This document shows, piece by piece, positions 6,306 to 62,432 of a DNA stretch of 64,000 nucleotides. How positions within the stretch are numbered: the stretch's first letter is position 1; every line of letters begins with the position of its first letter. The notes beneath the pieces were generated by a model. That model did no database searches and was not told where the DNA came from. It saw only the letters and a list, made by a program, of their open reading frames with translations. This DNA comes from Candidatus Nomurabacteria bacterium RIFCSPLOWO2_01_FULL_39_18 (GTDB lineage: Bacteria; Patescibacteriota; Minisyncoccia; Phycocordibacterales; UBA9973): contig MFUV01000004.1 in assembly GCA_001787005.1 (NCBI GenBank), positions 911-64,910 of the forward strand, read 5' to 3'. A program made the position numbers and the translations under genes.

Positions 6306-6392
6306 ATAACCCGGTAGTAGAGCTTGGCGATGTTTTTTGAAAAAACGCACTTCGTGCCTCGCCAAGTCTCACTACCGGGTAACTCATAAAAC
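6306..6392. repeat. Long imperfect hairpin element, copy 1, in the glnA 5' leader
   Basis: A ~22-bp stem, acccggtagtagagcttggcga / tcgccaagtctcactaccgggt, with an internal A·C/A·C mismatch loop. The same element recurs at 62357-62432. Confidence 0.5.
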
Positions 6393-14362: not shown

Positions 14363-14696
14363 AATAGGAGATATCGTACTGACGCCTTTCCCTTTTACCG
14401 ACCTTTCTGGTAATAAAGTTCGCCCGGCTCTTGTGCTCGGAGTACAAGACGGAGGCGATGATGTAACTGTTTGCTTTATTTCTTCTAATGAGCAAAACAA
14501 AATTCATAAGTTTGATATTCTGATTGACTTTAAAGATAAAAGCTTCAAAAAGACAGGGCTTAAGTTAAAATCAATTATTAAAGTAGTAAAAATAGCTACT
14601 CTAGATAAAGTGGTGATTCTAGGAAAAATTGGAGAGCTGGATACTTCAAATATGCGAAGGGTAAAAAATGTTTTGAAAGTTTATTTTGGATTGTAG
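14355..14696 (+). CDS. PemK/MazF-family toxin
   Basis: Segment GDIVLTPFPFTDLSGNKVRPALVLGV. Confidence 0.75.
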   Translation: MHKIGDIVLTPFPFTDLSGNKVRPALVLGVQDGGDDVTVCFISSNEQNKIHKFDILIDFKDKSFKKTGLKLKSIIKVVKIATLDKVVILGKIGELDTSNMRRVKNVLKVYFGL

Positions 14697-15952
14697 TTTT
14701 TTAAAAACTCCTCCTTAAATTCAAAAAAGTTATCATCTAAGATCGACTGCCTGATTTTTTTCACCAAATTAATAATGAAATATAAATTGTGCGTAGTGGC
14801 GAGGGTGGCGGCTAGCATTTCCTTGCCGTGAAAAAGATGGCAGAGATAAGCGCGAGTAAAACCCCCTGTTGTCCCCCTTGTCAGGGGGACAGGGCCCTCC
14901 TCCCCTGATAAGGGGAGGTCTCGGGAGGGGTTGTTGCACACATAGCACCCACAACCATCCTCAATCGGTTGGAAATCCCCCCGGTACTGGGCATTGGTGA
15001 TATTTATTTTTCCATTCTTGGTATATAGCGTTCCGTTTCTCCCATTGCGTGTCGGCGCGACGCAATCAAAAAGATCCACTCCATTTTCCACCCCCATAAA
15101 CAAATCCTCCGGTTCTCCGATGCCGAGCAAGTGCCGGGGCTTATCTTCTGGCAAAATTTCGTTCACCAGCCTGGTTGTCAGCTCCATGTGTTCCTTGGTA
15201 TAAGAGCCACCAATGCCAAATCCATCAAAAGGCAGACTGGAAATATATTCCGCGGATTTTTTGCGCGAATCTTTTTCCAGGCCGCCCTGCACAATGCCAA
15301 ACAGGGCTTGGGTATCTTTGTTTGGTTTGGATTGGTGATACTCTAGTGAACGCTTCGCCCAAGCATGGGTGCGAGAAAGAGCTTCGTTTTGATATTCATA
15401 ACTTTCATGCGGAGACGTAGCTTCATCAAAAGCAAAGATAATATCCGCGCCCAGGTTGTGCTGGATTTCCATAGATTTCTCCGGAGTGATGTAGTGAAGC
15501 GTTCCGTCTATATGTGAACGAAACGAGACACCGTCATTGCCGATATTGGCAAGCCGAGGCGCGCCATCTTCTGCGCTAGACCGCTCTGGAATTTGAATGG
15601 CAGGTTCGGTTCCTCTAATGACTTTCGAAAAGTCTTTTCCATAAGCCGCACCGAGAGAAAAAACTTGAAAGCCGCCAGAGTCGGTAATGATCGGACCCTC
15701 CCAATTCATAAACTTGTGGAGTCCACCGGCACGAGCCACTAATTCGTCTCCCGGCTGGAGGTAGAGATGGTAAGTGTTGGCAAGCACTACCTCTGCCCCT
15801 AATTCCGCCACCTGTAGGGGCGTGAGCGCCTTAACAGAGGCCTTGGTGGCAACAGGCACAAAGGTCGGAGTATGAATCTCCCCATGCGAGGTTTTCAAAA
15901 CCCCCGCCCTTCCTAAACTATTTTCTAATTTTTTTTCTATCTTGAAATGCAT
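14681..15952 (-). CDS. tgt: Queuine tRNA-ribosyltransferase with a ~21-aa in-frame insertion
   Basis: Motifs DCVAPTRNGRNG, LGIGEPEDL and the zinc site CGCYVCNN...TRAYLCHL. The extra peptide PSRDLPLSGEEGPVPLTRGTTGGF lies between the zinc site and TRAYL. It is encoded by the GC-rich palindromic element at 14861-14932. Confidence 0.9.
   Translation of the reverse strand: MHFKIEKKLENSLGRAGVLKTSHGEIHTPTFVPVATKASVKALTPLQVAELGAEVVLANTYHLYLQPGDELVARAGGLHKFMNWEGPIITDSGGFQVFSLGAAYGKDFSKVIRGTEPAIQIPERSSAEDGAPRLANIGNDGVSFRSHIDGTLHYITPEKSMEIQHNLGADIIFAFDEATSPHESYEYQNEALSRTHAWAKRSLEYHQSKPNKDTQALFGIVQGGLEKDSRKKSAEYISSLPFDGFGIGGSYTKEHMELTTRLVNEILPEDKPRHLLGIGEPEDLFMGVENGVDLFDCVAPTRNGRNGTLYTKNGKINITNAQYRGDFQPIEDGCGCYVCNNPSRDLPLSGEEGPVPLTRGTTGGFTRAYLCHLFHGKEMLAATLATTHNLYFIINLVKKIRQSILDDNFFEFKEEFLKNYNPK
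14861..14932. repeat. GC-rich palindromic element (RPE-like), copy A, in-frame inside tgt
   Basis: Tandem hairpins gtccccc-ttgtca-gggggac and cctcccc-tgataa-ggggagg in an AT-rich gene. Related copies lie at 42357-42449, 53106-53172 and 60176-60212. Confidence 0.5.
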
Positions 15953-15957
15953 AAATC

Positions 15958-16070
15958 AAAATGGGGGCAAGGTAATGTTTTTAGAGACTTGCGAGAGCGA
16001 CGGCTCGAACACGAGGAATTTTTTAGCAAAAAAATATCCGTGCTCTAAAAACATTACCTTGCCCCCATTT
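15958..16070. repeat. Composite palindromic element between tgt and mreC
   Basis: A perfect 28-bp inverted repeat, aaatgggggcaaggtaatgtttttagag at 15958-15985 and its reverse complement at 16043-16070. It encloses an AT-type hairpin at 16007-16045 that recurs inside pheT. The right arm encodes the last residues and stop of mreC. Confidence 0.55.
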
Positions 16071-16896
16071 CCACCTCCACAAACTTCAACTCTTGTATAT
16101 TCACTGGTGAAACAAGAAGCGCCTTTTGGAAAGAATCGCGCGGGTCAGAAATTATTGCTTCAACAACCCCCACGACATGGGGCATAATTCCCGGCAAAAC
16201 TGCCTGGTCTCCTTTTTTTAGAAAAAAATCTCTCGGCAATATCATTTCAAAGTTCCCTCCGCCCCGACCCACAATTTCCATAGAAACATCCTTGGTTGTC
16301 GTGATTTCACCAAACTCGCCCGCAATATTGTGATCAAGAGAAATTGTTATGTTGGTTTTCTCTCCACTACTCGAAAACAAAACAACTTTTGAAGAAGATC
16401 CATAAACTTCTCGAACACGCCCGATTGGCACAAAGCCTGAGGCAAATACCTTATCCCCTACTTGTAATCCCTGTTTTGTACCAACATCGATAACAAGCGT
16501 ATCATAGACGCTCTGATTTGGTCTAGACAGAATAGCGGCCAGGATCATTGGGGCTCCTTCTCTCTTTCTCCCTAAAATTTCCTTGAGTTTTGAATTCTCT
16601 TCCAAAATAGAATTATAATTCGACAGTTCTGCTTCGCTTTCGCGAAGTTTTGTTCTTAGATCTTCATTTTCTTCTATTAAAGAATTCTTTGAAGTAAAAA
16701 AATAAGAAATATCTCCCAATTTATCTCTAACACTATTTCCGAAAACCACAACTGGACGAAAGATAGTGCTTGAAACGTAAGCCAATCCATGAAAAATATT
16801 CATCCTAAAATAAAAAAGAACGGAAAAAAGTATGACAAAAAAGAAAGTGTAGGAAAATTCTTTTTTCTTTGATTTTCTATCTTGGAGGTAATTCAT
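16054..16896 (-). CDS. mreC: Rod shape-determining protein MreC
   Basis: N-terminal TM helix plus coiled coil, and position downstream of mreB. Confidence 0.8.
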   Translation of the reverse strand: MNYLQDRKSKKKEFSYTFFFVILFSVLFYFRMNIFHGLAYVSSTIFRPVVVFGNSVRDKLGDISYFFTSKNSLIEENEDLRTKLRESEAELSNYNSILEENSKLKEILGRKREGAPMILAAILSRPNQSVYDTLVIDVGTKQGLQVGDKVFASGFVPIGRVREVYGSSSKVVLFSSSGEKTNITISLDHNIAGEFGEITTTKDVSMEIVGRGGGNFEMILPRDFFLKKGDQAVLPGIMPHVVGVVEAIISDPRDSFQKALLVSPVNIQELKFVEVEMGAR

Positions 16897-17923: not shown

Positions 17924-17967
17924 AATTTTCCAGATAGAGCTTTAGACTCTAGATAGAGTCTAAAGCT

Positions 17968-19215
17968 CTATCTGGTTAGTATTTTTAATAATTCTTCCAG
18001 AGAAACAATTTTCCCTTTTTCTTCTGTGCGCTTTTTCAATTCAATTCCGCCTTCCTTTATACTTCGAGAAGATACAACTGCTCGATAGGGTATGCCAAGC
18101 AAGTCCGCATCGGCAAATTTCTCTCCTGGAGATATTTCTCCCCGATCGTCAAATAAAACCTCAATTTTATTCCTCTTTAAACTTTCATAGACTTTATCGG
18201 CTTCTTTTTCAATCTCTGTATCATCTCCTAGGGCAAGCAGATGGACAGCGAATGGCGCTATGGATTCGGGCCAGATAATGCCCTTATCGTCAGCAAGAAC
18301 CTCTACCACGGTGCCTAAAAGACGCCCCACGCCTATGCCATAACAACCCATCAAAACAATGTGTTTTTCGCCCTTTTCATCCACATATGACAAATCAAAT
18401 GGCTTTGAATATTTTGTTTTTAAATCAAAAATGTTTCCAACTTCAATGGCCTTTTGTTCAATTAGTTTTTCTTTTACTAAACCAAGCTGATTTAGAATTT
18501 CGTCGTTGAAAACTTCTTTATTAAGGGCAGTACCGCTAGCCTCATCAATATAAATAGTATCCTCGCCTAGGGGCGTGATGGTCTGGAATTCATGCGAATA
18601 TTTAGAGAAAGTTCCACCCGAAGCGAAAGCCATGTAAGTCAAATGGCCAATACCGACTCTGGCAAAGATAGTTTTGTAAACTTCTTTCATTTTATTATAG
18701 AATTTTTCGAAATCGTCTTTTGATGTGTGGAAGGAATACATGTCTTTCATGACAAATTCCCTACCCCGAAGTATTCCGGATTTTGCGCGAAGTTCCATTC
18801 TAAATTTATTTTGAATTTGATAAATGGAGAGGGGGAAATCTTTGTGGGAAGAAACATAATTTTTCAAAATAGGAACAACGATCTCCTCGTGAGTAGGACC
18901 CAAGGCAACAACTCTTCCGGAAGAATCAGTAACTTTGTATAAATCATCCATCGATTCCCATCTTCCAGTTTTTTCCCAATTTTCTTTCGGCTGGAAAGAA
19001 GACATTAAAACTTCTTGTCCGCCGACAGCGTTCATTTCTTCCCGAATGATATTTTCTATTTTTCGAAGCGTCCGGAGCCCTAAGGGCAAATAACTATAAA
19101 CCCCTGCCATTTCCTTATGAATAAAACCACCACGAATCAGGAGCTCGGCATTTTTTGATACTTCGTCTGCTGGCGCCTCGCGCCTCGTCTTAGTAAAAAG
19201 TTTTGATTGTCTCAT
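17968..19215 (-). CDS. proS: Prolyl-tRNA synthetase, compact form lacking the INS editing domain
   Basis: N-terminus MRQSKLF...YSYLPLGLRTLRKIENIIREEMNAVGGQEVLM is a class-II ProRS pattern. 415 aa. Confidence 0.85.
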   Translation of the reverse strand: MRQSKLFTKTRREAPADEVSKNAELLIRGGFIHKEMAGVYSYLPLGLRTLRKIENIIREEMNAVGGQEVLMSSFQPKENWEKTGRWESMDDLYKVTDSSGRVVALGPTHEEIVVPILKNYVSSHKDFPLSIYQIQNKFRMELRAKSGILRGREFVMKDMYSFHTSKDDFEKFYNKMKEVYKTIFARVGIGHLTYMAFASGGTFSKYSHEFQTITPLGEDTIYIDEASGTALNKEVFNDEILNQLGLVKEKLIEQKAIEVGNIFDLKTKYSKPFDLSYVDEKGEKHIVLMGCYGIGVGRLLGTVVEVLADDKGIIWPESIAPFAVHLLALGDDTEIEKEADKVYESLKRNKIEVLFDDRGEISPGEKFADADLLGIPYRAVVSSRSIKEGGIELKKRTEEKGKIVSLEELLKILTR

Positions 19216-20021: not shown

Positions 20022-20762
20022 CAAAAAGCAGATATTAAGAAAAAGGACGACACTATAATAGAAAAGATGTTTCGGGCTGGAGCGCACTATGGCTATTCCA
20101 AGAGCCGAAGGCACCCTTCTGTTTCGCCATATATATACGCTACAAAGAACAATGGAGACATAATCGACCTTGAAAAGACAAACATCATGCTAGAAAAAGC
20201 AGTTGATTTTGTGAAGTCTCTGGGTGTCCAAAATAAAGTCATTCTTTTGGTTGGCACAAAGCCCGAAGCCAAAGAGGTTATCAAAAATATGGCGGAATCT
20301 TTGAGTATGCCTTACGTTACTACGCGCTGGATTGGAGGTACCTTAAGTAATTTTACAGAAATAAAAAAGAGAATTACCGAACTCGAAAATTATCGCAAGA
20401 ATACCGCGGAAGGCAAACTCGATAAATACACAAAGAAAGAGCGTGTAGTTATGGCAAAGAAGATGGAGAAACTTTCAAAATATTACTCCGGTCTTATTGG
20501 CTTCAAGAAGGCCCCTGATGCATTATTTATCATTGATGGAAAGGCGGAACATATCGCTACTACCGAAGCAAGAAAAGGAAATATACCTATAATTGCCCTC
20601 TCGAATTCTGACTCAAACATTAAAGGCATAGATTACCCTGTAGTTGCCAACGATTCTGGGATACTTTCTATCAAATTTTTCGCCACGTCTCTCGCAGATG
20701 CCTATAAAGCAGGCCTGTCTGCGCAGGCGGGTCAAAACTCTGCGCCTACAAAAGAAGTCTAA
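20019..20762 (+). CDS. rpsB: 30S ribosomal protein S2
   Basis: S2 family sequence (segment HYGYSKSRRHPSVSPYIYATKNNGDIIDLEKT). Confidence 0.9.
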   Translation: MQKADIKKKDDTIIEKMFRAGAHYGYSKSRRHPSVSPYIYATKNNGDIIDLEKTNIMLEKAVDFVKSLGVQNKVILLVGTKPEAKEVIKNMAESLSMPYVTTRWIGGTLSNFTEIKKRITELENYRKNTAEGKLDKYTKKERVVMAKKMEKLSKYYSGLIGFKKAPDALFIIDGKAEHIATTEARKGNIPIIALSNSDSNIKGIDYPVVANDSGILSIKFFATSLADAYKAGLSAQAGQNSAPTKEV

Positions 20763-40161: not shown

Positions 40162-40284
40162 AAATAATTCAAAAAGCAAAATATAATTTTTGAAGGGGTT
40201 TGGCAAGCGACGGCGAGCCAACTTCAGGATTTTTTAAGCTTCAAAAAATCCGTACCGAAAAAAATTGATATTTTGCTTTTTGAA

Positions 40285-40623
40285 TTAGATTCCCCTCAAG
40301 TCTTCCATCGCCTGATCCACTGTTTTAAGTGGGTTCTGAGTAGGCGAAGATTCTGATCTCTCGGGTCTCATGCTCCCTTCTGGTTCATTTATCTTCAAAT
40401 TCACCCGAGCATTATTTTTCATTCCAATAATCCGGAGTAGAGTGCGGATAGCCTTGGCGGTGTTGCCCATTCTCCCGATAATCTTGCCCATATCAGCAGG
40501 GTTTACGGTGAGAGTTATAAGGACACCCATTTCGTCGACAGTGCGATCAATCTTCACATCATTCGGATTGTCAACGAGAGCCTTCACTACATACTCCAGA
40601 AATACCTTGTCAGCGTCTTGCAT
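40285..40623 (-). CDS. KH-domain RNA-binding protein (UPF0109/YlqC-like)
   Basis: Contains GKIIGRMGNTAKAIR, a KH GXXG loop. Sits between rpsP and trmD. Confidence 0.7.
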   Translation of the reverse strand: MQDADKVFLEYVVKALVDNPNDVKIDRTVDEMGVLITLTVNPADMGKIIGRMGNTAKAIRTLLRIIGMKNNARVNLKINEPEGSMRPERSESSPTQNPLKTVDQAMEDLRGI

Positions 40624-56253: not shown

Positions 56254-56299
56254 AGTTTACCATACTGACGACCGTTAGTATAGTAAACATATAAAATTA
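56254..56299. repeat. Pal2, copy 2, upstream of P2 and overlapping the gyrB stop
   Basis: Sequence gtttaccatactgacgaccgttagtatagtaaacatataaaatt. Confidence 0.5.
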
Positions 56300-58411
56300 T
56301 ATGTCAATCTCCGCGAGCTTGGCATTAGATTGAATAAAAGATTTTCGGGGTGGGACTTCGGAGCCCATAAGGATGTTGAAAATTTTGTTGGCTTCTTCGG
56401 CGTCGTCAATATTTACTTTTTTGAGTACTCGATGTGCTGGATCCATCGTTGTCTCCCAGAGTTCCTCTGGATTCATTTCTCCGAGACCCTTGAAACGCTG
56501 AATGTGAATTCTTGCCCCGTTAGAAGCAGGCTTCCCAGAGGAAGCCACAGATTCTAATGGGGTTGTTTGATCTTCATTTTCAGGTTCATTTTCTATCTCA
56601 TTAATCTCGCTCACTTCCGCGCCTTTACCAATAATTTTTAATTTTTCATCATCTGTATAGGCATAAGATATTTCTTTGCCTTTTTTAATTTTATAAAGCG
56701 GCGGCTGGGCAATATAAATATACCCCGCATCGATCACTTGTCTGAAGTATCGGTAAAAAAGTGTCAAGAGTAAAGTACGAATGTGCGAACCATCTACATC
56801 TGCATCAGTCGCAATGATTATTTTATGATAACGTATTTTTCCCAGATCAAAGGTATCCCCGATCGAAGTACCGAGCGCAATAACCAGAGACTTCACTTCT
56901 CTAGAAGCAAGCATCTTGTCTATGCGTGCACGCTCAACATTCAAAATTTTACCTCGCAGTGGAAGTATCGCTTGGGTACGGCGGTCTCTACCCTGCTTGG
57001 CACTGCCCCCAGCGGAATCTCCCTCCACTAAGAAAAGTTCCGATTCAGAAGCATTTTTTGTCTGACAATCTGCTAGTTTACCCGGAAGGGTCATGCCCTC
57101 GAGCGCGCCTTTGCGGAGTATTGAATCTTTCGCAGCCTTGGCGGCTTTGCGAGCCTTGAGCGCTAAAATAGATTTATTTATTATCGCTTTTGCATCGTCG
57201 GGGCTTTCCTCGAGGAAGCTGGCAAATGCTTCACCGAAGACCGTTGCCACAGCCCCCTGAGCCTCCATGCTTCCAAGCTTTGATTTGGTTTGTCCCTCAA
57301 ATTGAATTTCACGAAGTTTGACAGAAATAGCCACTGTGAGTCCTTCTAAGACATCTTCCCCTGTAAATCCACCTTCGGACTCCTTCATCATTTCCCGCTT
57401 CTTGCAATAAGTATTAAGGGTTCTAGTCAGGGCGGTTTTGAAACCAGTCACATGCGTACCACCTTCGGGGGTGTTGATATTGTTGGCGAAAGGAACAATG
57501 CGATCAACTATGTCGTCAACATATTGAAGAGCAATCTCCACGCCCACGCCGTCCGACTCTTTCTCAACATAAAAAATATTATCCTGTATAGGCTTTTGTA
57601 ATTTATTATAATATTTAATCAGAGAAATTAATCCTCCTTCGAAATAGAAAGAAGTGGAAGGAAGTTCTACTCCAAGCTCTCTAAAATAGAAAACGTCATC
57701 TTCATTTAAACCTTTTTTGCCTGCCTGCGCAGACAGGTTGTCCCACTCTCTCGCGTCAATAACCAAAATTTTCAGCCCTTTGACTAGGTACGCCTGCTGG
57801 CGGATATGATTTACTATTGTATGCCAATCAAATTTAATATCTTTGAAAATTTCTTCATCCGGCTCGAAAGTAATGATGGTGCCGTGGAGTTTAGAAGCGC
57901 CATTTTTTGTAACTTTAGACTTTTTCTTTCCTTTTGAATACTCTTGCACATATCTGCCTCCATCTCTATGCACTTCCGCTCTGCAGTATATAGAAAGAGC
58001 ATTAACGACAGATGCGCCCACTCCATGGAGACCACCGGAAACTTTATATCCACTATTCTCTCCGCCGAATTTTCCTCCAGCATGAAGAGTCGTCATAACT
58101 GTCTCAAGCGCGGAAACTTTTGTCTTCTTGTGCGTATCGACAGGTATGCCCCGGCCATTGTCCGCTACGCGAATACGATTGTGAGGAAGAAGCACAATTT
58201 CAATATTATTACAAAACCCCCCCATCGCCTCATCACGCGAATTGTCAAAAATCTCCCACACTAAATGATGAAGCCCTTCCGGGCCTGTTGTGCCAATATA
58301 CATGCCAGGACGCCTTCTCACGGGCTCTAGCCCCTCTAAAACAGAGATATCTGAAGCGTCGTAGTGGTGTCCATTTCCGCTCTTTTTACCCTCTTCTTTC
58401 TCCTTTGCCAT
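56297..58411 (-). CDS. gyrB: DNA gyrase subunit B
   Basis: GHKL ATPase domain, segment LHAGGKFGGENSGYKVSGGLHGVGASVVNALS, and a TOPRIM domain. Confidence 0.9.
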   Translation of the reverse strand: MAKEKEEGKKSGNGHHYDASDISVLEGLEPVRRRPGMYIGTTGPEGLHHLVWEIFDNSRDEAMGGFCNNIEIVLLPHNRIRVADNGRGIPVDTHKKTKVSALETVMTTLHAGGKFGGENSGYKVSGGLHGVGASVVNALSIYCRAEVHRDGGRYVQEYSKGKKKSKVTKNGASKLHGTIITFEPDEEIFKDIKFDWHTIVNHIRQQAYLVKGLKILVIDAREWDNLSAQAGKKGLNEDDVFYFRELGVELPSTSFYFEGGLISLIKYYNKLQKPIQDNIFYVEKESDGVGVEIALQYVDDIVDRIVPFANNINTPEGGTHVTGFKTALTRTLNTYCKKREMMKESEGGFTGEDVLEGLTVAISVKLREIQFEGQTKSKLGSMEAQGAVATVFGEAFASFLEESPDDAKAIINKSILALKARKAAKAAKDSILRKGALEGMTLPGKLADCQTKNASESELFLVEGDSAGGSAKQGRDRRTQAILPLRGKILNVERARIDKMLASREVKSLVIALGTSIGDTFDLGKIRYHKIIIATDADVDGSHIRTLLLTLFYRYFRQVIDAGYIYIAQPPLYKIKKGKEISYAYTDDEKLKIIGKGAEVSEINEIENEPENEDQTTPLESVASSGKPASNGARIHIQRFKGLGEMNPEELWETTMDPAHRVLKKVNIDDAEEANKIFNILMGSEVPPRKSFIQSNAKLAEIDI

Positions 58412-58430: not shown

Positions 58431-60317
58431 TTACCTCACTTGCCAAGCTTCATTTCCCTTAATTTTATTAGATATTTTGGCCATAATTTCGTTTATTTCT
58501 GTGTCTGTTAGAGTGCGATTATAAGACTGAAAAACCAGACGAAAGGCGTAAGAAATTTGACTGTCTTTTTTGAACTCGTCGAATAAATCAGGGCCCTTAA
58601 TTAGGAGTTCTCCCGCGTTTTCTTTTATAATTTTTTGAACTTTTGAACTTTCAACTGAAGCGGGCACCCATACAGCAATGTCTCGCGCGATGAATGGGTA
58701 CAATGACCACATTTGAAATTTTTCTGAATAAGAATTTTCTTTAGAAGAGACTTGGGAGCGCGTCGGCGCGAGCACGAGGAATTTTTCAGCAGAAAAATAT
58801 CCGTGCTCTTCTGAAGAAGAATTCTTAGAAAGAAAATCATCTAAACTTGTTTCTATTATTTTTTCTTTTTCATTGTACACAACATGCATTTCTTCTCCAT
58901 TTTTTTTAAACACAGTTCCTATTTCGAAAATTTTAATTTCATTGAAGTCAAGCAATAAAGCATTCAGTTTATTTAATTTTAAACTTTCCTTAAGTCCATC
59001 AGTCAAATTCGTCCTTAAAAATTTCTTGTCTGAAGCACTTTGCATCACCTCCACTTCCCCCTTGTCTTGGAAGACGTATGTCATCACTTCAGAGTAACCC
59101 TCATCTAATAATTTATTTCTGGCGAAAGCTATTTTGGCGTAAGTTTCGTTAACTTTCGGCTTAAAATCTATCTTGGGCATTATCGGCTTTACTCTGTCAT
59201 ACCCTAAAATTCTACCTATCTCTTCCGCCATATCCTCTTCCATAACTAGATCAAGCCGCATCGCTGGCACAGTAATTGTGAACTTGGAGGTCTTGCCTCC
59301 AAGTGGAGGCAAGACCTCCAAGTTGTACTCAATATTGTATCTCTTAAAAATATCTTCTATCTCTTTTGCGGAAACGACTAAGCCTAAAATTTTAGAAATT
59401 TTCTCCGTTGAAAAAGAAAGTTCTCTCTCTTCTTGTTTTTTTGGATAAATATCCACAACATCCTCAAAAATAGCTTCGGGGCACATTTCCGCGATTAGCG
59501 CAGAAAGTTCGCGCATACCGTATTCTGCCATTGTCGGTGACAAATCGTTCTCAAATCTCTTGCGCGCGTCAGTAAAAATGTTTAGGGCTTGGGCGGTTTT
59601 GCGCACGCTAGTCGGATCGAAATTAGCACATTCTAGAATTATATCCGTTGTATCTTTATTCAATTCCGCATATTGCCCCCCTTTTATCCCCGCAATATCC
59701 AGAGAATTTCCAAAATCGTCAGCAATTACCATCATGGTTTCATTCATTATTTTTTCCCCTCCGCCAAGCAGAGTTATCTTTTCCCCTGCTTTAGCATTTC
59801 GTACTTTTAGTTTTAAATCTTTAACTTTTTTCAAATCAAAAACATGCGCTGGTTGGCCGCAATTAAACATTGTGAGGTTTGTGGCATCCACGATATTGTT
59901 TATGCTTCTCTGCCCGATTGATTCTAAATGCTTCACTACCCATTCTGGCGATGGGCCAATTTTAATATTCCTGACGACTCTGCCCATGTATCGGCGGCAG
60001 TTTGGACTTTCAATTGTTTTTACTAACTTCGTCGGCTTGGATTCTGGAATTTTGTATTTAGGCGTTGGGTCAATATATGAAATATTTAAAAGTGAGGCAA
60101 GCTCGCGGGCTATACCTTGATGGGAAAGCAGGTCATGCGCGCGGTTTGGTAAAATTTTTATATCAAAAATAAAATCACCACCCCCAGCCCCCTCCTCCAC
60201 AAGGAGGGGAGTTACACTTTCTACCTCCGCAACATGGTAAGTTATAATATCCGCCAGTTTTTCTGCAGAAGGAACATCGGGTATATACCATTTAAGCCAA
60301 TTGTAGGAAATTAGCAT
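58431..60317 (-). CDS. pheT: Phenylalanyl-tRNA synthetase beta subunit, compact, with two in-frame repeat insertions
   Basis: B3/4 domain, B5 domain and a C-terminal FDX-ACB-like domain. 628 aa. The N-terminal insertion VTPLLVEEGAGGGDF comes from GC-rich element D. The insertion EEHGYFSAEKFLVLA comes from the AT-type hairpin at 58770-58808. Confidence 0.85.
   Translation of the reverse strand: MLISYNWLKWYIPDVPSAEKLADIITYHVAEVESVTPLLVEEGAGGGDFIFDIKILPNRAHDLLSHQGIARELASLLNISYIDPTPKYKIPESKPTKLVKTIESPNCRRYMGRVVRNIKIGPSPEWVVKHLESIGQRSINNIVDATNLTMFNCGQPAHVFDLKKVKDLKLKVRNAKAGEKITLLGGGEKIMNETMMVIADDFGNSLDIAGIKGGQYAELNKDTTDIILECANFDPTSVRKTAQALNIFTDARKRFENDLSPTMAEYGMRELSALIAEMCPEAIFEDVVDIYPKKQEERELSFSTEKISKILGLVVSAKEIEDIFKRYNIEYNLEVLPPLGGKTSKFTITVPAMRLDLVMEEDMAEEIGRILGYDRVKPIMPKIDFKPKVNETYAKIAFARNKLLDEGYSEVMTYVFQDKGEVEVMQSASDKKFLRTNLTDGLKESLKLNKLNALLLDFNEIKIFEIGTVFKKNGEEMHVVYNEKEKIIETSLDDFLSKNSSSEEHGYFSAEKFLVLAPTRSQVSSKENSYSEKFQMWSLYPFIARDIAVWVPASVESSKVQKIIKENAGELLIKGPDLFDEFKKDSQISYAFRLVFQSYNRTLTDTEINEIMAKISNKIKGNEAWQVR
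58770..58808. repeat. AT-type hairpin element, copy 2, in-frame in pheT
   Basis: The sequence gagcacgaggaatttttcagcagaaaaatatccgtgctc closely matches 16007-16045. Confidence 0.5.
60176..60212. repeat. GC-rich palindromic element, copy D, in-frame near the pheT N-terminus
   Basis: Hairpin cccctcctcc-acaa-ggaggggag. Confidence 0.45.
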
Positions 60318-62316: not shown

Positions 62317-62356
62317 CTTCTTATCATATTAACTGCAAAAAGACAAAATGACAACC

Positions 62357-62432
62357 AGGTAGTAGAGCTTGGCAATGCGCAAAGCGCGTTCTTTTAGAAC
62401 TTTGCCAAGTCTCACTACCGGGTGCTACAATA
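62357..62432. repeat. Long imperfect hairpin element, copy 2, in the trhO 5' leader
   Basis: Arms accaggtagtagagcttggcaa / ttgccaagtctcactaccgggt. Relative to copy 1 there is a compensatory G:C to A:T change. The internal A·C mismatches are conserved. Confidence 0.5.

Follow-up and report, generated by a model that had tools for sequence, protein, structure and literature searches.

A previously undescribed family of palindromic elements with a conserved branched core, lying between and inside genes of Patescibacteria

We analysed a 64-kb stretch of DNA (the window; coordinates are window positions unless stated otherwise) from Candidatus Nomurabacteria bacterium RIFCSPLOWO2_01_FULL_39_18, in which a short palindromic element recurs between and inside genes. 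Two of its copies lie at three genes on the minus strand, and Pfam confirmed the gene identities in the window: tgt, encoding queuine tRNA-ribosyltransferase (14681-15952), mreC (16054-16896) and pheT, encoding the PheRS beta subunit (58431-60317). The initial annotation had singled out two near-identical 39-mers, one in the mreC-tgt region (16007-16045) and one in frame inside pheT (58770-58808). Both are present at these positions, and their similarity extends to 64 nt (15983-16046 against 58746-58809; 57 of 64 positions identical, 89%). The 39-mers differ at three positions rather than about four, and two of the differences (T-A against C-G) make up a compensatory pair that closes the inner hairpin. 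Chance similarity had been considered unlikely, and indeed the expected number of chance matches was 0 in 100 dinucleotide-preserving shuffles of the window.

Copy 1 (15959-16070, plus strand) occupies the spacer between mreC and tgt, which lies downstream. Its two ends form a perfect 28-bp inverted repeat (15959-15986 and 16043-16070) whose innermost 4 bp fall inside the shared 64-mer. This repeat had been recognised correctly except that its left arm was placed one base off, and it had been taken for a separate feature enclosing the 39-mer; it is the outer stem (P1) of the element itself, and nearly every copy has its own. The 5' arm starts 6 nt past the tgt ATG (15952-15950), and the 3' arm, read on the minus strand, donates the 3' end of mreC, namely the codons for M-G-A-R and the stop codon (16054-16056). 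The only other occurrence of the 5' arm sequence in the window is its own partner arm. Between the arms lie the P2 arm (15988-16013), which reads CTTG...CACG around GAGC-GACG-GCTC, and the P3 hairpin GGAATTTTTTAGCAAAAAAATATCC (16015-16039), the module with the highest conservation. In an alignment of 98 copies (A1), on which our covariance model is based, P2 takes up columns 25-54 and shows compensatory changes. Copy 1 has a folding z-score of -10 to -13 and a covariance-model score of 97.7 bits.

Copy 2 (58720-58833, plus strand; 101.1 bits) lies in frame in pheT, at about residues 496-533, and has imperfect arms. Its P2 arm (58751-58776; CTTG...CACG around GCGC-GTCG-GCGC) and P3 hairpin GGAATTTTTCAGCAGAAAAATATCC (58778-58802) are both in alignment A1. 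The 39-mer is translated as EHGYFSAEKFLVL, within the wider reading …SSSEEHGYFSAEKFLVLAPTRSQVSSKENS…, and the insert falls in the linker that joins the CLM domain, which runs to about residue 485, to the FDX-ACB domain, which begins at 538. Copies 1 and 2 are of the same type (type 1). The annotation was prepared to give up the idea of a repeat family if no further copies turned up in the genome and chance explained the similarity; the covariance model built from the 98 copies revealed a third, divergent one in the window (match 40178-40267, 36 bits, E ~9e-7), and many more were found in Patescibacteria assemblies. Copy 3 (40165-40287, plus strand; type 2, P3 = GGATTTTTTAAGCTTCAAAAAATCC; 27-nt arms at 40165-40191 and 40261-40287) exactly occupies the spacer between a khpA-like gene and trmD, with the khpA-like stop codon in its right arm and its left arm 3 nt after the trmD ATG. 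The window thus holds 3 copies in 64 kb, or about 1 per 20 kb.

The element is about 110-140 bp long, has no open reading frame (ORF) of its own and forms a long hairpin on either strand. Its outer stem (median 29 bp, maximum 49) has, in nearly all copies, a sequence peculiar to that copy, and the tip of the hairpin is a three-way junction of about 60 nt whose stems covary and whose loops are conserved. In A1, compensatory changes occur at 13 of the 13 counted pairs of P1. P2 begins with CUUG/CACG, including a conserved U.C mismatch, and continues with a C-G pair, a tandem G.A/A.G internal loop, a 4-bp stem and a GNCG loop; 71 copies have U-A and 20 have A-U at its pair 27-52, and three of its four distal pairs are compensated. 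P3 (GGAAUUUUUC-AGCA-GAAAAAU(A)UCC) has an A/T-rich stem, in which one base is bulged, and an ARYA loop; the closing pair is C-G (72 copies), U-A (22) or G-C (2). Paired cells amounted to 89.8% in A1 against 70.8% in shuffles, and the covariation score was 0.486 against 0.143, with none of 500 shuffles reaching the observed value. The initial annotation had instead described a simple long hairpin, GAGCACG…CGTGCTC, which competes with P2 and P1. We rejected it: pairs 48-85 and 52-82 are broken in 46 and 27 of the 98 copies, respectively, and are uncompensated, and covariation favours the three-way junction of outer stem, P2 and P3. A hammerhead ribozyme was also set aside on inspection, the lengths of the junction strands (1, 1 and 3 nt) being incompatible with its core.

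Two further subfamilies have the architecture of type 1 and keep its loops (GNCG, ARYA) while their stems are replaced: type 2, with the P3 seen in copy 3, and the G+C-rich type 3 (P3 = GCGCTACGCC-AGTA-GGCGTAGACAGCG and variants). Across subfamilies, compensatory change was found at 27 of 31 pairs, in an alignment that was itself fitted to the model. The core is not self-complementary, and transcripts in opposite orientations would show complementary loops. On the core strand, G.T mismatches are modestly more numerous than A.C ones, at 51:20 within the arms and 79:42 within A1; this hints that one strand is folded or exposed and is too weak an excess to separate RNA from DNA.

Some copies depart from this layout. 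Ten stretches, cited here and below by their L numbers, show a second architecture (L015, L036, L043, L044, L050, L070, L073, L106, L113, L119), with an identical P3, short outer stems and a different, G+C-rich left part (…GAGAAAGCCGGAGCGCGACGGCGCGAGGCGGGGTCGC-P3-GTGACCGAATCCCTCC); P3 thus behaves like a module that different elements reuse. In addition, subsets of copies from different genomes have conserved asymmetric motifs in common, located in the arms far from the core (AAAAYTCGTCGAA … GAGAAAGARTTTT or …AGCGAG… / …CGAGCG…). The two motif sets comprise L006, L014, L018-L020, L027, L037, L047, L049, L052, L077, L084 and L114, and L001, L012, L046, L068, L072, L087, L109 and L112; in both, the stretch of stem from motif to core is variable. 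These motifs may be extra recognition sites or subfamily markers.

We scanned one genome per species with the exact 25-nt core pattern GGAATTTTTNAGCANAAAAATATCC and obtained matches in at least 119 stretches from at least 92 assemblies. Among the matches listed, nearly all bear Patescibacteria labels: Nomura-, Taylor-, Yonath-, Zambryski-, Wildermuth-, Lloyd-, Nealson- and Moranbacteria, as well as Paceibacterota and Minisyncoccia, alongside a large number of metagenome-assembled genomes (MAGs) with generic labels. Single assemblies can hold several copies (at least 6 in MHTV01, 5 in CAZFHL01). A search that did not depend on the pattern, with the covariance model in 357 kb of relatives picked via mreC, gave 14 matches representing 11 distinct sequences, the two additional subfamilies included. 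The pattern had 0 matches in 2.9 million viral contigs and so gave no sign of a phage vector. An Rfam 15 scan of the window returned RNase P RNA and two tRNAs alone, and hits at the element locus were generic miRNA-precursor hairpin noise that fell far short of the threshold; with gathering as with E-value thresholds, no family, self-cleaving ribozymes included, matched the element. Literature searches by topic and by exact core sequence retrieved no paper that contains the sequence or describes such repeats in Patescibacteria. The family is previously undescribed.

Several side observations came from these searches. A core variant with an identical P3 hairpin occurs in two contigs (L045, L067) of CAYJLM01, a MAG labelled 'uncultured Gammaproteobacteria'; this could reflect mis-binning, mislabelling or true transfer beyond Patescibacteria. 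The contigs of L021, L026, L051, L053, L062 and L070 start or stop within an element, and a single mnmA gene is split at the insert into two halves, one in L021 and one in L053. Database 'hypothetical proteins' P0122-P0130 (48-103 amino acids) match element-encoded peptides and are probably spurious gene calls over intergenic copies. A protein search with four encoded peptides concatenated gave 14 candidates only and was uninformative.

Comparing the 3' ends of mreC and pheT with those of relatives had been suggested at the outset, and both comparisons gave filled and empty sites. In most of the 40 best mreC relatives that we inspected, the mreC stop codon abuts or overlaps the tgt ATG and the element is absent. 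MreC ends there in VEVE followed by K, Q, L or I, and in the window it ends in VEVEMGAR, the extra residues coming from the arm. The relatives L149, L157/L159 and L128/L131 (MreC 55-61% identical) have the same element with recognisably homologous arms at this junction, and in the closest relatives (L120, L121; MreC 81% identical) the junction is occupied by a type-2 element whose arms are unrelated. Where orthologues of a UvrD-like helicase, of Dus and of IscS lack the element, they have gaps of 100-138 nt, which equal both arms plus the core. L058 and L117 carry the element in the helicase-rsmA spacer; in L014 and L112 this spacer is empty and has no palindrome. On these alignments, arms and core are all inserted DNA. 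Arms made as inverted copies of the target flank were considered and rejected: both arms are missing from the empty mreC-tgt sites and do not resemble the flanks, and the insertion lengths in Dus, IscS and the helicase also speak against it. A pre-existing palindrome as the target was likewise rejected, none being present in the empty helicase-rsmA sites.

In the PheT linker, the same insert (EEHGYFSAEKFLVLAPSRSQVS) is present in 22 of 121 homologues (62-74% identical); the rest have unrelated inserts or, in some, none. Mapped on a neighbour-joining tree, the pattern requires 12 or more gains or losses, a rough number given that the tree is poorly resolved at these distances, and the inter-domain linker is an insertion hotspot. 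Across the PheT homologues P0001-P0120, the linker (about residues 490-535) also holds at least six other recurrent insert peptides (e.g., SLTLLQPSAGTFRLQNS, FALGDIGQGTHGSLNSS, FLNGLAGVGDPENRGPEKMT, EEYPLGGGGRIIHPGASATPQEGN and PPRPSGTPLQKGGEEFPPRLDKEG), which suggests that several other insertion families use this hotspot. At mreC, the gene and the type-1 element are separated in L128, L131 and L152 by a structured, G+C-rich insert (…CCCGTGCCTACCCAGGCCGAGTGCGGGCGCCGAATAGGCGCAACCC…) some 190 nt long, and another palindrome (AAGGTCTTTCCTTGA…AGACCTT) lies downstream of mreC in L122, L125 and L149.

We took a census of the context of 116 copies, counting a copy as inside a coding sequence when it lay in an open frame of at least 110 codons. 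By this measure 23 of 116 were inside an open frame, and 12 of 116 (about 10%) were clear cases in recognisable housekeeping proteins. The in-frame hosts are PheT (several genomes), TsaD (two genomes, same loop), MnmA, IscS, Dus, a GlmM-like mutase, a UvrD-like helicase and ComEC; furthermore, a type-3 copy lies in frame in tgt of L156. In-frame copies occur in both orientations and use four of the six reading frames, and the peptides predicted from such read-through include GYFSAEKFLVLAPSR and LGSATARARGIFQQK. The core is open in five of six frames, a count reached by 15% of dinucleotide shuffles; the idea that it is selected to be translatable was dropped as not significant. Stems have a median of 32.5 bp inside coding sequences versus 29 bp between genes.

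The orientation of the element relative to genes is random. Inside coding sequences, 12 copies have the same orientation as the host gene and 11 the opposite; the intergenic copies fall into 25 (-/-), 15 (+/+), 15 convergent and 8 divergent; and the core is oriented with flanking or host genes in 27 cases and against them in 36. This randomness led us to reject a cis-acting mRNA element. Relative to GC skew, orientation is split 69:47 (p ~0.05), and a single-strand element tied to replication was rejected on the weakness of this bias. No T-tract follows the stem (mean 2.55 T per 8 nt, background T 0.28 per base, with the opposite side alike); an intrinsic or SPRITE-like terminator was rejected on the missing U-tract and on the copies within essential ORFs.

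These results bear out the proposal of the initial annotation that a palindromic family distinct from its GC-rich one lands in coding sequence. There are at least 119 further copies in at least 92 assemblies, copies lie in frame in at least eight different housekeeping protein families, and insertion is supported by orthologous loci without the element; that the family is mobile we infer from its distribution, as no transposition event was caught in progress. Copies at different loci of one genome add to this. In CAZFHL01 (L037 twice, L084, L049; three or four copies) and in MHTV01 (L008, L083 twice), paralogues share arms as well as core, with arms diverged by about 20%, the changes mirrored on the partner arm, and almost identical cores. 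Sharing of both parts indicates that the element moves as a unit at least sometimes. A composite transposon was rejected in both assemblies, as the gene between the inverted copies of L037 encodes an ABC transporter and the genes between those of L083 are glycosyl-transferase- or hydrolase-like. More generally, core identity, measured in the P2 region outside the pattern-fixed P3, had a median of 0.70 within genomes and 0.50 between them. Arm identity was at least 0.7 in 6 of 52 within-genome copy pairs, and within-genome values formed a continuum from 0.83 down to background.

We therefore favour, at a rough probability of 0.55, the reading that Patescibacteria of the Parcubacteria/Paceibacteria lineages harbour here a palindromic insertion element that is selfish and non-autonomous. 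Copies would enter DNA wherever the host tolerates them, such as the few bases between neighbouring genes or the surface linkers of proteins. Between genes, the arms could then supply a stop codon, and in linkers the element would be translated in whichever frame it landed. The copying or moving process would recognise the folded tip, as single-stranded or cruciform DNA or as an RNA copy, rather than terminal sequences; we infer this recognition from the conserved centre, the covarying stems and the free arm sequences. Arm symmetry may be maintained via correction of one arm templated by the other.

A number of points weigh against such an element. Arm identity is at background, with a median of 0.40 both within and between genomes, and three pairs of copies in one genome combine identical cores with unrelated arms (L076/L078, L038/L064, L007/L089), the shared part stopping 2-10 bp into the stem. 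Simple transposition of a unit fails to explain identical cores on unrelated arms. The identity of the 25-nt core in at least 92 assemblies is above what would be expected of a neutral parasite, with the figure biased by the search pattern. The long stems kept in coding sequences hint at a maintaining force or a role at the level of the host. Finally, no transposase, reverse transcriptase or other partner gene adjoins the inspected copies, and no target-site duplication was seen at the borders of the youngest paralogues or of the mreC-tgt copy, where borders are fuzzy and the symmetry enters the flanks. Candidate explanations can be offered for the origin of the unique, complementary arms: the arms may evolve fast under arm-to-arm templated correction, gene conversion may homogenise the cores, or the core may be transplanted into other palindromes.

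Among known systems, the nearest functional analogue of the selfish element, and at most an analogue, is the Rickettsia palindromic element (RPE), which is about 150 bp long, palindromic and in frame in many unrelated genes by a mechanism that is not known (PMC10969869). No transposase or target duplication is known for RPEs either (PMC10969869). Both are palindromes of about 100-150 bp without coding capacity, dispersed in a small-genome, host-dependent bacterium, and both lie in frame in unrelated housekeeping genes, where they are read through as additional peptide loops (here in eight protein families, with inserts of 100-138 nt). However, the RPE consensus spans the full length, whereas here the central 60 nt or so are conserved and the arms are copy-specific, and the RPE is found within one genus, whereas the present core is a covarying three-way junction found in at least 92 assemblies. 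The host phylum also differs: nearly all of the present matches are labelled Patescibacteria, and the comparison with RPEs is by description only. Given the different phylum and the whole-length RPE consensus, membership in that group cannot be claimed.

MITEs, or miniature inverted-repeat transposable elements, such as Correia/NEMIS, ERIC and Nezha are also short, non-autonomous and multi-copy, form hairpins when transcribed, lie at gene boundaries and may donate regulatory or coding bits. MITEs, however, have conserved terminal inverted repeats that match a parent insertion sequence, together with target-site duplications; the present element is short, non-coding and multi-copy, but its ends are its least conserved part and no terminal repeat is common to the family. 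Concerning a cognate insertion sequence, no transposase lies beside the inspected copies, and no genome-wide search for one was made. Long near-perfect inverted repeats retained in functional protein genes are known from mitochondria of Nematomorpha (PMC6649704). The retention of long stems within functional genes is common to both cases, but there both arms encode conserved protein and no common core exists, whereas here the whole palindrome is extra and has a family core. Mobile GC clusters of yeast mitochondria are further palindromic insertions that may be in frame. Palindromic repeats that colonise genes are known as such; what is new is this family and its layout, with a conserved branched centre and free complementary arms.

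A more tentative reading, possible but less probable than not, sees the tip as the recognition module of an undescribed Patescibacteria system that reads folded nucleic acid, either a new mode of moving DNA or a functional structured site. In the former variant, an enzyme specific for hairpin tips would copy or transplant the core, and a templated process would make and keep the unique symmetrical arms; in the latter, the core would represent structured DNA or RNA sites of a new class, put to use by the cell. A reader of folded nucleic acid would explain the centre conserved in at least 92 assemblies, the covarying stems and the identical cores on unrelated arms. Two known kinds of system bear comparison. 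Repetitive extragenic palindromes (REPs) and the bacterial interspersed mosaic elements (BIMEs) with their REP-associated tyrosine transposases (RAYTs; Y1/HUH), like IS200/IS605, are or use dispersed hairpins recognised as folded single-stranded DNA, where structure and a few bases outweigh stem sequence. Such repeats and an enzyme encoded in the same genome evolve together, a pattern into which the genome-specific cores of our element would fit. REPs are 20-40 nt long and strictly extragenic, with a GTAG/CGTC tag (PMC3733652). The present element differs in being 110-140 bp long, branched and about 10% intragenic (12/116), with just a weak replication bias, and no RAYT or Y1 gene adjoins any copy. 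The attC sites of integrons are recombination sites read as a folded single strand, with free stem sequence and conserved structure. In attC, though, it is the stem base that has the conserved boxes (R and L), and the tip varies; our element is reversed, being conserved at the tip, and its copies are solitary, between or inside housekeeping genes, with no cassette array or integrase context.

It is rather unlikely, in our estimate, that the element is primarily a structure-specific DNA site of the host, with a conserved protein binding the junction hairpins (as cruciform or transient single strand) and with spread being secondary. Such a site could serve replication restart or priming, chromosome organisation or self-recognition in DNA uptake. 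The strong conservation of the core in at least 92 assemblies, set beside flanking proteins that are just 45-80% identical, is consistent with this, as are loops and junction bases conserved over covarying stems in three subfamilies, orientation independent of transcription and the lack of matches in 2.9 million viral contigs. Genome-specific cores (P2 medians of 0.70 within and 0.50 between genomes) would also be expected from co-evolution with a genome-encoded reader. Yet the element is patchy at each locus and empty in many close relatives, so no single site is required; the 69:47 split by GC skew is weak for a lagging-strand role; the density of about 1 per 20 kb is far under that of known uptake sequences; and landing in essential coding sequence would be costly if host-made.

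We consider it unlikely that the element works as a structured RNA in transcripts, whether as a hairpin for RNase III processing or mRNA stability, as an insulator between cistrons or as a small RNA with its own transcription. Functional RNAs are classically recognised by conserved loops on covarying stems, intergenic copies lie exactly between co-transcribed genes, and Correia/NEMIS repeats, as RNase III substrates, offer a precedent (PMC10969869). G.U-type mismatches also outnumber A.C by about 2:1 on the core strand, but this excess is low for a true RNA. Orientation is moreover random (27 same versus 36 opposite) although the core is not self-complementary, Rfam gives generic hairpins only, no U-tract follows the stem, and the arms are unconserved, so that a conserved promoter cannot lie there.

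Quite unlikely, to our mind, is that the core alone is mobile or converting: it would insert at, or be copied from one to another of, the tips of independently arisen palindromes, whose arms are no part of it. Insertion sequences that target palindrome loops exist, as IS1397 and ISKpn1 do in REP units. Identical cores on unrelated arms in one genome, with sharing that ends 2-10 bp into the stem, argue for this, as do core-less perfect palindromes in comparable places of the same genome (17930-17975 and 59281-59324) and the different core types and arms at mreC-tgt in relatives with 81% identical MreC. Against it, empty orthologous sites have no core-less palindrome (helicase-rsmA in L014 and L112; most mreC-tgt junctions), some paralogues share arms and core together, and the continuum of within-genome arm identity from 0.83 to background fits divergence after duplication of a unit.

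Similarity by chance can be dismissed, and so can artefacts of assembly or amplification, for example inverted chimeras: multiple-displacement amplification can create palindromes, and several contigs end within an element (L021, L026, L051, L053, L062, L070), but dispersed repeats produce contig ends within themselves, 0 chance matches were expected in the shuffles, the same core occurs in at least 92 assemblies from many independent projects, and copies lie in frame in essential genes and are common to orthologous sites in PheT and at mreC-tgt.

The window holds other palindromes besides the three copies. One of the two core-less palindromes just mentioned, at 59281-59324 in the B5 domain of pheT, is a perfect 21-bp palindrome with a 2-nt centre, in frame and encoding LEVLPPLGGKTSK. 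Its insert adds about 9 amino acids relative to most of 120 homologues, a few of which have a similar insert (LVVGVPLGTPTTK); together with copy 2, pheT thus holds at least two different palindromic insertions. The other, at 17930-17975 just upstream of the mreB start, is a perfect 22-bp palindrome with a 2-nt centre (CCAGATAGAGCTTTAGACTCTA|TAGAGTCTAAAGCTCTATCTGG); it could be related to the core-bearing elements, be what remains of one or serve them as a target. Inside tgt, a G+C-rich palindrome at 14874-14915 (CCCCTTGTCAGGGGGACAGGGCCCTCCTCCCCTGATAAGGGG) is translated within …PLSGEEGPVPLTRG… and presumably belongs to the GC-rich family of the initial annotation. A short G+C-rich palindrome (CCTGCCTGCGCAGGCAGG and variants) has four copies, at 20707, 27245, 54952 and 57713, the last of which (57713-57738) lies within the coordinates of the gyrB ORF (56297-58411). 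Another palindromic family (ACCNGGTAGTAGAGCTTGGCRA … TYGCCAAGTCTCACTACCGGGT, arms 26-28 nt apart) has two copies, at 6309-6380 and 62354-62423. Two small hairpin families are also present, TACGGAGGCGTTGCCTCCGT in three copies (45645, 46800, 47493) and GTTTACTGTACTAACGACCGTTAGTTAAGTAAAC in two (55617, 56255).

Genomes of the candidate phyla radiation (CPR)/Patescibacteria are usually called small, streamlined and poor in mobile DNA. The family, its subfamilies and the other palindromes of the window portray Patescibacteria genomes as peppered with palindromic insertions, and the essential genes that hold such insertions include pheT, tsaD, mnmA, iscS and tgt. There are practical consequences: MAG assemblies break at the elements, with contigs that end inside them, the variable loops added to conserved proteins confuse alignments and phylogenies, and gene callers render the elements as small 'hypothetical proteins'. 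The presence or absence of copies varies among close relatives, and they could for this reason act as lineage markers. The layout is the reverse of that of ordinary transposon-derived repeats, with a conserved branched centre and arms that are free yet complementary, and the conserved tip offers a handle for finding the enzyme or process that would read folded DNA or RNA in Patescibacteria.

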